DNA of 64,000 nucleotides from Escherichia coli (GTDB taxonomy: Bacteria > Pseudomonadota > Gammaproteobacteria > Enterobacterales > Enterobacteriaceae): assembly GCF_051903065.1 (NCBI RefSeq), contig NZ_CP178438.1; one strand, written 5' to 3'. This document shows, piece after piece, positions 3,800 to 9,965 of the stretch (positions are counted from its first letter, which is position 1; every line of letters starts with the position of its first letter). The translations under genes and the position numbers were made by a program. The notes beneath the pieces were generated by a model. That model searched no databases, was not told where the DNA came from, and worked only from the letters and a program-made list of their open reading frames with translations.

Positions 3800-5035
3800 A
3801 TGCTGCAACAGGTTCCAACGCGTGCTTTTCATGTGATGGCGAAACCGAGCGGTTCCGATTGTAATCTGAACTGTGACTACTGTTTTTATCTCGAAAAACA
3901 ATCCCTTTACCGCGAAAAGCCAGTCACGCATATGGACGATGACACGCTGGAAGCGTATGTCCGTCACTATATCACTGCCAGCGAACCGCAAAACGAAGTG
4001 GCTTTTACCTGGCAGGGCGGCGAACCAACGTTACTCGGGCTGGATTTTTACCGCCGTGCCGTAAAGTTACAGGCGAAATACGGTGCTGGCAGGAAGATAA
4101 GTAACAGCTTCCAGACTAACGGCGTGCTGCTCGATGATAAATGGTGTGCATTTCTGGCAGAAAATCATTTTCTTGTTGGGTTATCGCTGGACGGTCCGGC
4201 TGAGATCCACAATCAATATCGCGTGACCAAAGGTGGCAGACCAACGCATAAGCTGGTGATGCGTGCCCTGACGCTGCTGCAAAAACATCATGTCGACTAT
4301 AACGTGCTGGTCTGCGTCAACCGCACCAGCGCGCAGCAACCGTTGCAGGTTTATGATTTTTTGTGCGATGCGGGAGTCGAATTCATCCAGTTTATTCCGG
4401 TGGTCGAGCGTCTGGCTGATGAAACAGCTGCCCGCGATGGACTGAAATTGCATGCGCCTGGTGATATTCAGGGGGAACTGACGGAATGGTCGGTGCGCCC
4501 CGATGAATTTGGTGAATTTCTGGTGGCGATATTCGACCACTGGATTAAACGCGACGTCGGCAAGATTTTCGTGATGAATATCGAATGGGCGTTTGCCAAT
4601 TTTGTCGGTGCGCCGGGTGCGGTTTGCCATCATCAGCCAACCTGTGGGCGCTCGGTGATTGTTGAGCACAATGGCGACGTTTACGCCTGCGATCACTATG
4701 TTTATCCGCAATATCGACTGGGGAATATGCACCAGCAAACAATTGCAGAAATGATCGATTCCCCGCAACAGCAGGTGTTTGGTGAAGATAAATTTAAGCA
4801 ATTACCGGCGCAGTGTCGCAGTTGTAACGTGTTAAAAGCATGTTGGGGAGGCTGCCCGAAACACCGCTTCATGCTCGATGCCAGCGGCAAACCGGGACTG
4901 AATTATTTGTGTGCCGGGTATCAGCGTTATTTCCGCCATCTACCGCCATATCTTAAAGCAATGGCTGATTTGCTGGCGCACGGTCGCCCGGCCAGCGACA
5001 TTATGCATGCGCATTTGCTGGTGGTGAGTAAGTAA
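3800..5035 (+). CDS. aslB: Radical-SAM anaerobic sulfatase-maturating enzyme homologue, 411 aa
   Basis: CxxxCxxC radical-SAM motif (CNLNCDYC) near the N-terminus and C-terminal Cys clusters; start trimmed from the track ORF (3770) to the ATG giving MLQQVPTRAF; lies next to sulfatase aslA. Confidence 0.8.
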   Translation: MLQQVPTRAFHVMAKPSGSDCNLNCDYCFYLEKQSLYREKPVTHMDDDTLEAYVRHYITASEPQNEVAFTWQGGEPTLLGLDFYRRAVKLQAKYGAGRKISNSFQTNGVLLDDKWCAFLAENHFLVGLSLDGPAEIHNQYRVTKGGRPTHKLVMRALTLLQKHHVDYNVLVCVNRTSAQQPLQVYDFLCDAGVEFIQFIPVVERLADETAARDGLKLHAPGDIQGELTEWSVRPDEFGEFLVAIFDHWIKRDVGKIFVMNIEWAFANFVGAPGAVCHHQPTCGRSVIVEHNGDVYACDHYVYPQYRLGNMHQQTIAEMIDSPQQQVFGEDKFKQLPAQCRSCNVLKACWGGCPKHRFMLDASGKPGLNYLCAGYQRYFRHLPPYLKAMADLLAHGRPASDIMHAHLLVVSK

Positions 5036-5060
5036 AAAAGCGGCCATTTTGTGGCCGCCT

Positions 5061-5177
<117 letters not shown>

Positions 5178-5202
5178 GGCAGATCTCAGCGATAGCGCCG
5201 GC

Positions 5203-6858
5203 TTAATCAGATTTAATCTGCGCGCGTGGTGGATACTTTTTCAGGATCTCCATATACGCGTGCATTTCGGTCTGTAGCGGTACACCCATCGGAATATGGC
5301 GCACGCCGATAGAGTCGCTCTCCTGCGGATCGGTGTACAGGTTAAACACCGACGATCCGGCTGTTTGCATTACTGTGCCGGTGAATCCACCCTGATATCC
5401 GCTCTGGGTATAAGCGTAAGGTTGCTGAATCAGGACGTGATACTTGAATTCATCCATACGCACAGCAGCGAGTTTACCGTTGAGGAAGTAGTGCTCGGCC
5501 TTACGGTTAGACTGACCATTTGTTCCCAGGAAGAAAGATGTCTGGTCCACACCATCGATAAAGGTGGTTTTCGGCACTAAATTCGCCACTTTCGCGCCAG
5601 GATGCCCTGCCAGATCCAGCGCGGTAGGGAAGAGATCTGCCAGATCGACAATACCGTCAGATTTACGCGGTTGGATCATCCCTTTCCAGTACACGAAAGT
5701 CGGAACGCGAACGCCGCCTTCCCAGGTAGATCCTTTCGCACCACGGAACGGTGTGCGTCCGTGCGGCGGTACTTCGGCTTCCGGTCCGTTATCGGAGGTA
5801 AAGACAATCAGCGTGTTATCAAGCTGACCGTTTTTCTCTAGTGCTTTATACAGATTAGCGAACACATCGTTCATTTCCACCATGCAGTCGCCATACGAGG
5901 TGCGTGCCGGAGAGCTACCCGCATATTTGGCGTTCGGGTAGTTATCGAAGTGACAGCCGCGAGTGCCGTAATAGAGGAAGAAAGGCTTCTCACTCTTCGC
6001 CATCTTGTCGAGGAACTTAACGCCATATTCCATCCAGCGTTGATCCAGATCTTCCATATATTTCGGCGTAATGTCGGCAATGGCCTGTTGTTCGCCGCCG
6101 CGCACCGCATGAACGTCATCTTTGCTAAATGGTAATTGCTTGATGTATTCAGAACGGTCCGGACTCAGGGCCACTTCCGGATTGACGTGAACGTCGCGCC
6201 ATTCGGTGTACATATCAGACACCGAGTTAAAGCCACGGAAATCATCAAAGCCAACGTTCTGCGGCTGCGACTCTTTGTTTTCCCCCATATGCCATTTCCC
6301 GATGGCCTGAGTGACGTAGCCCTGATCGTGCAGCAACTGCGGCAGCGTGGTTAACCCTTGCAGCCCGCCCGGTTGCCCGTACATTGGCGGCATCAGAATG
6401 CCGTGGTGGATGGAGTATTGTCCGGTGAGAATGGTGGCGCGGGTTGGGGAAGAGCTTGGTTGAGAATACGCCGAAGTTAAAATCAGCCCCTGGCTGGCAA
6501 CGGCGTCGATATCTGGTGTAGGGTTACCCACCGCCACGCCGCCACCGTTAAAACCGACGTCCATCCAGCCCACATCGTCCAGCAAGAAAACAACCACATT
6601 CGGTTTCTTACCGGTTTTTTTCTCAAGTTCTGCCAGCTTCTGCTGGGTTTCTTTATCCTGCGCCGGATGCTGCATTACTGGCATCATGTTGTCGGCAATA
6701 GTGGTCGCCGGTTTAACCAGATACTGGTTTGGGTGATCGTATCCGGCAAAGCCTTTGCGTGCGGTGGCAGTTGAAGGGGTATCTGCTGCGCTGGCCATGA
6801 GAGGAAGAGCGGCGGCGACAGCAACAACAAGAAGTTTGGGTGAAAACGAAAATTCCAT
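5203..6858 (-). CDS. aslA: Arylsulfatase-like protein with signal peptide, 551 aa; Ser-type sulfatase signature
   Basis: N-terminal signal peptide ([15 protein letters not shown]); sulfatase signature S-x-P-x-R-xxx-L-T-G present as [11 protein letters not shown]. Confidence 0.85.
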
Positions 6859-7282
6859 GCAAAATGCTCCGGTTTCATGTCATCAAAATGATGACGTAAT
6901 TAAGCATTGATAATTGAGATCCCTCTCCCTGACAGGATGATTACATAAATAATAGTGACAAAAATAAATTATTTATTTATCCAGAAAATGAATTGGAAAA
7001 TCAGGAGAGCGTTTCCAATCCTACCTCTGGCGCAGTTGATATGTAAGGCAGGTTTATTATATCGCGTTGATTATTGATGCTGTTTTTAGTTTTAACGGCA
7101 ATTAATATATGCGTTATTAATTGAATGAATTTTATCATTCATAATAAGTATGTGTAGGATCAAGCTCAGGTTAAATATTCACTCAGGAAGTTATTACTCA
7201 GGAAGCCAAGAGGATTACAGAATTATCTCATAACAAGTGTTAAGGGATGTTATTTCCCGATTCTCTGTGGCATAATAAACGA

Positions 7283-7489
7283 GTAGATGCTCATTCCATC
7301 TCTTATGTTCGCCTTAGTGCCTCATAAACTCCGGAATGACGCAGAGCCGTTTACGGTGCTTATCGTCCACTGACAGATGTCGCTTATGCCTCATCAGACA
7401 CCATGGACACAACGTTGAGTGAAGCACCCACTTGTTGTCATACAGACCTGTTTTAACGCCTGCTCCGTAGTAAGAGCAGGCGTTTTTTT
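7283..7489 (+). ncRNA. glmZ: Small RNA GlmZ (activator of glmS translation), about 207 nt including its intrinsic terminator
   Basis: No ORF; sequence GTAGATGCTCATTCCATCTCTTATGTTCGCC... matches GlmZ as I recall it; located in the aslA-hemY spacer; ends in hairpin aacgcctgctc/gagcaggcgtt plus T7; CATAAT -10 hexamer at 7271-7276. Confidence 0.8.
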
Positions 7490-8735: not shown

Positions 8736-9965
8736 TTATTCTCCTTGCGGCGCGGCTGCCGGAGTATCAGCTTGCGGTGCAGGTGCAGGTGCAGGTGCAG
8801 GTGCAGGTGCAGGTGCAGGTGCAGGTGCAGGTGCAGGTTTAGCTTCCGTTGTCTCCGCTGCCGGTTGTGCCAGCAGGTTACGCACGCGAGTCTGCATCAG
8901 TTTTTCCAGCATCGCCTGGCTTTGCAGGGTTTCCGGAAGATCCATCGAGATATTTTGCTGGCTTAACTGGTCCACCTCGTCGAGGAACGCTTTGGTGGTG
9001 GCATCATCAGTATCGTAGTAAGCACGTACCCAGGTGGAGACGTTCTCCAGCGCCTGGCGATAAGTCTCTTCCTGATGACGCGGTACAGCTTGTGCTGCGA
9101 CCAGCAGGCGAGAGCGAATATTTTCGCGCAGATAGATATCCTGATTTGGCGCTAACAGCGGTACGGCGGTGTCATCACGACGGCGAATCGTAATGAAGTT
9201 GTCCATAAAGTTCTGCCAGCTTTTTTGCAGATTGATACGCCATTCGCTGATGGAACTGGAAAGCTCTTCACCGTCGGAATCCATCGGCGAACCATCGCTG
9301 TCATTATCGGCCAGACGCAGGTTATCTACCTGATTTGAAAGCTGATTAAGCTTAAGGATGATGCCGTCATAATCCACCTGCGATACTGCAGAAAGGCTGG
9401 CGATATCATCGGTAATTGCCCGACGAACGGTAATCAAACTCGGGTCATTCATATCCGCCAGGCTGGCGTCTGCACTTTTCAGCAACGCTGCAGCGGTCGT
9501 GACGTCCTGATCGCTCCACAGCTTCCGTCCGGCGAGTTTCACCAGAAAATCGGCCTGAGCCAGCAGCCAGGTTTTAGCATCGCTGCCGGAAATGGTGGCG
9601 ACCTTTTGTTGGACTTCATCCAACTGTTTTGCCAGCGTTTCTTGCTGACGATTCGCCTGCTTAAGTTGTGCAGCTTGTTGCTTAATAATGCCTTCCAGCT
9701 CGGCTTTTTGGCTCTCCTGGGCTTTTTGCAATGCCGTCAGTTGGTTAGCCAGGGCATCGCTGGTGGCGGTCTGATTGACGGCCTGTTGTTTACCCCAGCC
9801 ATACAAACCGACGCCTGCCGCCAGAGCAATAGCGATAGCCACCGCACTGAGAATCAATGCGGTATTGTTCTTACTCTTTTTTTCTGTTGCGACAGGTTGT
9901 GACGTGGTGTCCACGGCCTCCCTGGTCTCTTCAACCACGGCGGAGGTTTTTTCTTGTTCCGTCAT
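8736..9965 (-). CDS. hemX: HemX (membrane-anchored protein with coiled-coil region and a C-terminal Pro-Ala repeat), 409 aa as called
   Basis: ORF 2 bp upstream of hemY; single TM; Gln/Ala-rich coiled-coil region; C-terminal (PA)n tract; product length may vary with repeat number. Confidence 0.8.
8776..8838. repeat. Perfect hexanucleotide tandem repeat (GGTGCA/TGCACC), about 10.5 units, encoding the (Pro-Ala)n tract of HemX
   Basis: ggtgcaggtgcaggtgca... read directly from the sequence. Confidence 0.95.

Follow-up and report, generated by a model that had tools for sequence, protein, structure and literature searches.

A two-unit tandem repeat in the aslA–glmZ spacer of Escherichia coli and its relation to the promoters on either side

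Among the described promoters of the GlmZ family of small RNAs, those of glmY and glmZ in Yersinia, Salmonella, Enterobacter and others are of the sigma-54/GlrR(QseF)/IHF type, in which repeated activator sites lie some 100–250 bp upstream of the start; the E. coli locus considered here resembles them in its place upstream of a gene of this family and in the notion of repeated sites at such a distance. Such promoters carry three GlrR sites, each an inverted repeat, together with a −27 element, whereas our locus has neither, its repeats are direct and GlrR does not bind them. A much closer match is the constitutive sigma-70 promoter of glmZ that defines group III, comprising Escherichia and Klebsiella, in the classification of Göpel et al. 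(NAR 2011, 39:1294, PMC3045617); locus, sequence, transcription start and spacer are the same as ours and there is no architectural difference between them. The third relevant class is that of the small intergenic VNTRs, which vary through slipped-strand mispairing. The repeat described below is like them in its 15-bp head-to-tail units, its recurrent contraction, its restriction to one lineage and its location in rapidly evolving DNA; unlike the hypervariable or phase-variation VNTRs it has two units at most, shows no expansions, and its contraction alters spacing with no known consequence.

The window is the whole stretch of E. coli DNA that was analysed (64,000 nucleotides), and its background is that of EHEC. 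The features of the aslA–glmZ region are collected in Table 1. The original prediction had drawn attention to a long AT-rich spacer upstream of glmZ, and such a spacer is indeed there, with a GC content of 32–36% against 49–60% in its flanks. Its sequence shows 100% identity to O157:H7 strain TR01 and 99.3% to K-12; outside the spacer, the window and TR01 differ at many positions in 4378–5362 (aslB and 3' aslA sequence). Within the loop of the glmZ terminator hairpin, position 7470 is G in the window and A in K-12, O157:H7 TR01 and the B2-like strain W46, and this is the lone glmZ difference between the window and every other E. coli locus that was compared.

Table 1. Features of the aslA–glmZ region in window coordinates.
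Feature	Position	Strand	Basis or remark
aslA (arylsulfatase AslA, 551 aa)	5203..6858	-	ORF and RefSeq annotation of identical locus; reads away from spacer
aslA–glmZ spacer, 424 bp	6859..7282		between aslA start codon (6858, minus strand) and glmZ start (7283)
Candidate aslA promoter, TACACA-16-TGnTAAAAT	7129..7156 (7156->7129)	-	best sigma-70-like match on aslA strand
Least conserved spacer segment, holds the repeats	7128..7216		E. albertii identity 40–63% in 30-nt windows
Partial third copy, AGCTCAGG	7163..7170		only CTCAGG in common with repeat unit
Two-unit 15-bp tandem repeat, TATTCACTCAGGAAG / TTATT-ACTCAGGAAG	7176..7205		Tandem Repeats Finder
Predicted aslA promoter, TTAACA-18-TGTAAT	7213..7242 (7242->7213)	-	sequence prediction of Shimada et al. 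(PMC3946193), located in window
Constitutive sigma-70 promoter of glmZ, ATGTTA-N15-tggCATAAT	7247..7276	+	window sequence matches motif of Göpel et al. (PMC3045617)
glmZ sRNA gene	7283..7489	+	Rfam RF00083, full length, 218.3 bits, E 2.7e-57
glmZ intrinsic terminator	7455–7484 plus T run	+	terminator scan
hemY	after glmZ	-	next gene

An exact direct repeat at 7181–7205, about 80–100 bp upstream of glmZ, had been predicted, and sequence reading, repeat finding and pattern search agree on it: the 10-mer ACTCAGGAAG occupies 7181–7190 and 7196–7205 with TTATT in between, so that the two copies span −102 to −78 relative to the glmZ start. Tandem Repeats Finder describes a head-to-tail array with a period of 15, 1.9 copies, 93% matches, a score of 53 and the consensus unit TATTCACTCAGGAAGT. 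The partial third copy proposed for 7164–7171 fared less well; it is present, but one base away from that position, and its likeness to the unit does not extend beyond six bases (Table 1). It is moreover confined to the K-12/O157 haplotype of the spacer (see below), since B2-like strains have tGCGCAGG and E. albertii has ttGCCAGG in its place. When the spacer was shuffled 5000 times with its dinucleotides preserved, 101 of the products (2%) had an exact 10-mer direct repeat with copies 10–30 nt apart, and the 64-kb window as a whole holds eight such pairs, at about five independent loci, against 1.2 expected. The repeat is unlikely to be the product of pure local chance and is probably mutational in origin, yet it is ordinary for real bacterial DNA; it is not exceptional because slippage and duplication generate such repeats there. 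Our preferred reading, in which we have considerable though not complete confidence, is that the array is neutral and specific to E. coli, a 15-bp tandem repeat in spacer DNA free of constraint, losing a unit from time to time. The pair would have arisen in the distal part of the spacer by slipped-strand duplication or by a short templated conversion, and would play no part in the transcription of glmZ.

For glmZ itself, the regulatory architecture of the spacer was dissected experimentally in 2010–2011. The glmZ fragment studied by Göpel et al. (PMC3045617), −424 to +32, corresponds to this very spacer; purified GlrR did not shift it in EMSA, and a chromosomal glmZ'-lacZ fusion was unaffected by deletion of glrR, deletion of rpoN or overexpression of glrR. 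Graded 5' truncation of glmZ'-lacZ to −40 left the promoter active and truncation to −20 abolished its activity, these being plasmid fusions in wild-type K-12 under the authors' own conditions, with conditional or chromosome-context effects (e.g., those of H-NS) outside their scope. Mutations in the −35 or the −10 element killed the promoter; in the authors' conclusion, E. coli glmZ depends on one sigma-70 promoter, which is constitutive and, in the conditions that they examined, apparently subject to no regulation (PMC3045617). In the window the −35 element ATGTTA lies at 7247–7252 and tgg plus the −10 element CATAAT at 7268–7276 (the −10 itself at 7271–7276), which together cover −36 to −7; transcription of glmZ in Escherichia is driven from this lone promoter. 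The ACTCAGGAAG repeat is not singled out by Göpel et al., though it falls inside the part upstream of −40 that they found to be dispensable for glmZ, and because K-12 has both copies, their deletion result applies to it directly. In EHEC, neither QseF nor QseB affects glmZ expression (Gruber and Sperandio, PMC3903284). Hence the suggestion that the repeats are activator sites for glmZ is refuted by published experiments, in which the DNA upstream of −40 was dispensable, GlrR did not bind, and glrR, rpoN, qseF and qseB were without effect, and by the comparative data presented below.

Strain PSS-16 of E. coli (NZ_AP027713.1, 1–1550) provides a natural parallel to the −40 truncation of Göpel et al.: an IS1A element with an adjoining deletion has eliminated the 5' portion of aslA along with all spacer DNA upstream of −50. 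The aslA gene of this strain is annotated as a pseudogene; its glmZ is intact and differs from that of the window at 7470 only.

The comparison with other genera drew on about 40 Enterobacterales glmZ loci among the matches listed, E. albertii included and E. fergusonii, Salmonella and Klebsiella absent, which were retrieved by scanning contigs with a degenerate pattern anchored at the 5' end of glmZ, a search that yields many chance matches. Among the loci listed, no genus beyond Escherichia has any homology to the window spacer upstream of about −17. In most of them a sigma-54 element is found at −27 along with GlrR sites (TGTCN10GACA) near −246, −214 and −151, all three being seen in Enterobacter, Lelliottia, Siccibacter, Cedecea, Serratia and others; the premise of the original prediction that glmZ promoters are regulated in related bacteria was therefore sound, in agreement with Göpel et al. 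(PMC3045617). A regular-expression search for the −24/−12 element TGGCA-N6-7-TGCA some 27 nt upstream of glmZ found none in the window, K-12, the other E. coli or E. albertii. Allowing up to three mismatches, there was no sigma-54 element near the glmZ start of the window, nor, allowing up to two, was there a GlrR site TGTCN10GACA in its spacer. The loci devoid of sigma-54/GlrR elements upstream of glmZ are those of Escherichia, two of the three Citrobacter species, Kluyvera and Pseudocitrobacter, a grouping that broadly reproduces the one published by Göpel et al., who put Citrobacter among the genera that retain these elements (PMC3045617).

At the level of individual genomes, the full sigma-54 element and the GlrR sites are lacking in Citrobacter werkmanii, C. 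youngae, Kluyvera genomosp. 1 and Pseudocitrobacter faecalis, and Citrobacter sp. FP75 has kept the sigma-54 element; in Pseudocitrobacter, aslA adjoins glmZ as it does in Escherichia. These sequence comparisons suggest that GlrR/sigma-54 control of glmZ may have been lost in more lineages than Escherichia and Klebsiella. In Escherichia, we envisage that a minimal constitutive sigma-70 promoter replaced an ancestral sigma-54/GlrR/IHF architecture, a swap that the present locus would illustrate, and that the spacer DNA lost its regulatory function upon this exchange. The DNA upstream of about −45 would then have been free to drift, and could have accumulated the small tandem repeat, two diverged haplotypes and, in one strain, the IS1-associated deletion.

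The variation of the repeat within the species was surveyed in 5,426 complete E. coli genomes, 5,423 of which contain the spacer. The exact two-copy sequence is present in at least 5,177 of the 5,426, and 186 have lost precisely 15 bp, which leaves one unit. These fall on two haplotype backgrounds, B2/F-like in 176 genomes (SMS-3-5 and an ST648 strain among them) and K-12/O157 in 10. No three-unit allele occurs in the 5,426 genomes. The copy number thus varies recurrently among isolates, as it does in a VNTR, and the contraction either arose at least twice or crossed between the backgrounds by recombination. Since ten bases are identical between the units, at a distance of 15 bp, occasional contraction to one unit by slippage is to be expected, and this would produce a low-frequency copy-number polymorphism. 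The same AslA protein (WP_000395844.1) is encoded in a one-copy and a two-copy strain. A point against neutrality is that about 95% of E. coli genomes have the two 10-mers in identical form, on both of the deeply diverged upstream haplotypes; an invariant stretch of 25 nt is, however, what is expected at the level of diversity of E. coli.

The two haplotypes, K-12/O157 and B2/F-like, are defined by positions 7030–7175 of the spacer, where they have 19–20 differences in 146 nt (13–14%); divergence is 0.5–4.5% in the flanking aslA, the remaining spacer and glmZ. About 36% of the complete genomes fall in the 90–95% identity band, and E. albertii shares states with both haplotypes. Lying just upstream of the repeats, this block extends into the spacer segment with the lowest conservation. 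Its sequence pattern could reflect either ancient polymorphism or imported DNA, and an effect on the expression of aslA is conceivable.

The outgroup sample for E. albertii consisted of one genome and one metagenomic contig. Its repeat region has nearly the length of that in the window, with one extra base; copy 1 reads gCTCAGGAAa (8 of 10 positions matching) and copy 2 gtgtgtGAAG (4 of 10). The six mismatches of copy 2 to its E. coli counterpart are consecutive, which suggests a single multi-base event, and with one outgroup this may have been a gain in E. coli or a loss in E. albertii. The repeats sit in the worst conserved part of the spacer (Table 1); sliding windows over the remaining spacer and the core promoter gave 73–100% identity between the window and E. 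albertii, with 80–97% in the aslA-proximal portion. Metagenomes scanned for spacers of the Escherichia type whose copy 2 departs from the E. coli sequence yielded just one further E. albertii contig, and among the listed E. coli matches to the E. albertii segment, where the full-length ones stood at 79.9% and four records at 80–90% were left out, no cryptic-clade genome was evident. Phylogenetic footprinting thus gave no conservation of the repeats in E. albertii and nothing homologous in other genera, which, together with the dispensability for glmZ, is what the original prediction had named as refuting it; the conservation in related species that would mark a response-regulator site is not there.

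A separate observation concerns a block of 30 nt, TTTATTATATCGCGTTGATTATTGATGCTG (7053–7082), that is 100% identical in the window, K-12 and E. albertii and that differs only in its first four bases in B2-like strains. A perfect TATAAT lies within it on the aslA strand (7061->7056), the −35 that goes with it being poor; from its sequence the block could be a conserved promoter or operator element of aslA.

That the spacer must also carry the divergent promoter of aslA, as had been argued, is borne out by the RpoD-holoenzyme SELEX peak that Shimada et al. (2014, PMC3946193) mapped there, together with an H-NS site, in their entry aslA<HNS>glmZ. If transcription began where their predicted promoter would place it, at about 7206, the repeats would make up the first ~25 nt of an aslA leader of ~350 nt. 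Their function might then reside in the RNA, with CUUCCUGAGU present twice at the 5' end, for example as pyrimidine-rich motifs resembling an anti-Shine-Dalgarno sequence; the coincidence of the start with the edge of the repeat and the strong conservation of the aslA-proximal spacer, which fits a functional leader, are in accord with such a proposal. The promoter in question is, however, a sequence prediction, whose −10 is destroyed in E. albertii (TGCAAC); no part of the putative leader is conserved as poorly as the repeat, no Rfam family matches anywhere in 6700–7300 even at E <= 1, and folding of 7160–7225 revealed no significant secondary structure (z = 0.41). We regard a role in a leader RNA as highly improbable. 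The small ORFs of the spacer (6955–7077 on the plus strand and 7001–7138 on the minus strand) were also considered and set aside, the minus-strand start not being conserved in the E. coli or E. albertii alignments.

The alternative in which the repeats are tandem sites for a putative transcription factor, acting on aslA or conditionally on glmZ, has more in its favor, and we nevertheless judge it unlikely. The aslA promoter has to lie within the spacer, at which the RpoD-holoenzyme peak maps; from the candidate promoter 7156->7129 the repeats would be at about −59 to −83, a typical position for an activator. The two 10-mers are exact and, at ~50% GC, stand out from the AT-rich DNA around them. 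Regulators of aslA exist, given that its expression in E. coli K1, where it is reported to be an invasion determinant, responds indirectly to RpoE and LL-37. Against this, E. albertii lacks the repeats although its aslA and the aslA-proximal spacer are conserved, and the adjacent candidate promoters are not conserved even within E. coli: the −10 of 7156->7129 is TAAAAG in B2-like strains and is altered in E. albertii as well. Ranking of minus-strand promoters in the spacer gave many weak candidates, as is typical of AT-rich DNA, with no well-scoring one that was conserved. One-copy alleles arose at least twice, barring recombination, and persist in 186 genomes with aslA intact. Our search of the literature found neither a mapped aslA start nor a regulator reported to bind at the repeats, but only the prediction of Shimada et al., the indirect effect of RpoE and the choice of aslA as a neutral site for insertions.

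The geometry and sequence of the repeats do not favor a factor either. In PhoB, OmpR, CpxR and PhoP boxes, direct repeats follow one another at one helical turn, 10–11 bp from center to center. The period here is 15 bp, about 1.4 turns, so that the two copies point to different sides of the helix, off-phase for dimeric proteins that bind tandem repeats. The search for two-component regulator or IHF sites advocated in the original prediction was negative for the repeats: simple consensus scans for IHF, GlrR, CRP, FNR, CpxR, PhoB, ArcA, Fis, sigma-54, H-NS, NagC/Mlc and CysB-like sites gave no match that overlaps the two copies, the nearest being a PhoB-like sequence with five mismatches just downstream. 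The IHF consensus WATCAANNNNTTR, with at most one mismatch, is found in the spacer only at 6900–6912, 6963–6977 and 7060–7072, none of which overlaps 7163–7205. The most specific form of the factor hypothesis is that the 10-mers are E. coli-specific operators for a putative regulator of aslA or a conditional regulator of glmZ, the two-to-one contraction then being a natural switch of aslA between lineages; we give it little credence. Strain-specific variation in the repeat-bearing segment could still affect aslA. As for the repeat itself, because it is not conserved and one-copy alleles are tolerated, the sequence comparisons make a contribution to the control of aslA unlikely, and we return to a neutral repeat as the better account.

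Nor is specific recognition the only conceivable role, for the repeats might contribute spacing or curvature to an AT-rich tract that is bound by H-NS or another nucleoid protein and silences aslA, their exact sequence then being immaterial. The GC content of the spacer and the H-NS site reported in it (PMC3946193) speak for this option, and the nucleoid-protein alternative of the original prediction is plausible if applied to the whole spacer; the binding, detected by Genomic SELEX, was assigned to the spacer as such, at a resolution too coarse for the repeats. Among the short elements of the distal spacer, however, the units have the highest GC content, the opposite of the preference for AT-rich sequence described for H-NS, and the sole H-NS-motif-like match in the spacer is remote from them (6974–6983). 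Furthermore, glmZ is constitutive and strongly expressed from only 80 bp away, and the loss of 15 bp is tolerated. For the repeats, then, such a role seems very doubtful, and neutrality the likelier explanation.

Elsewhere in the window, a tandem run of the hexamer GGTGCA occupies 8776–8815, within the coding region of hemX (minus strand) and close to its 3' end, and gives 10-mer self-matches at distances of 12, 18, 24 and 30.
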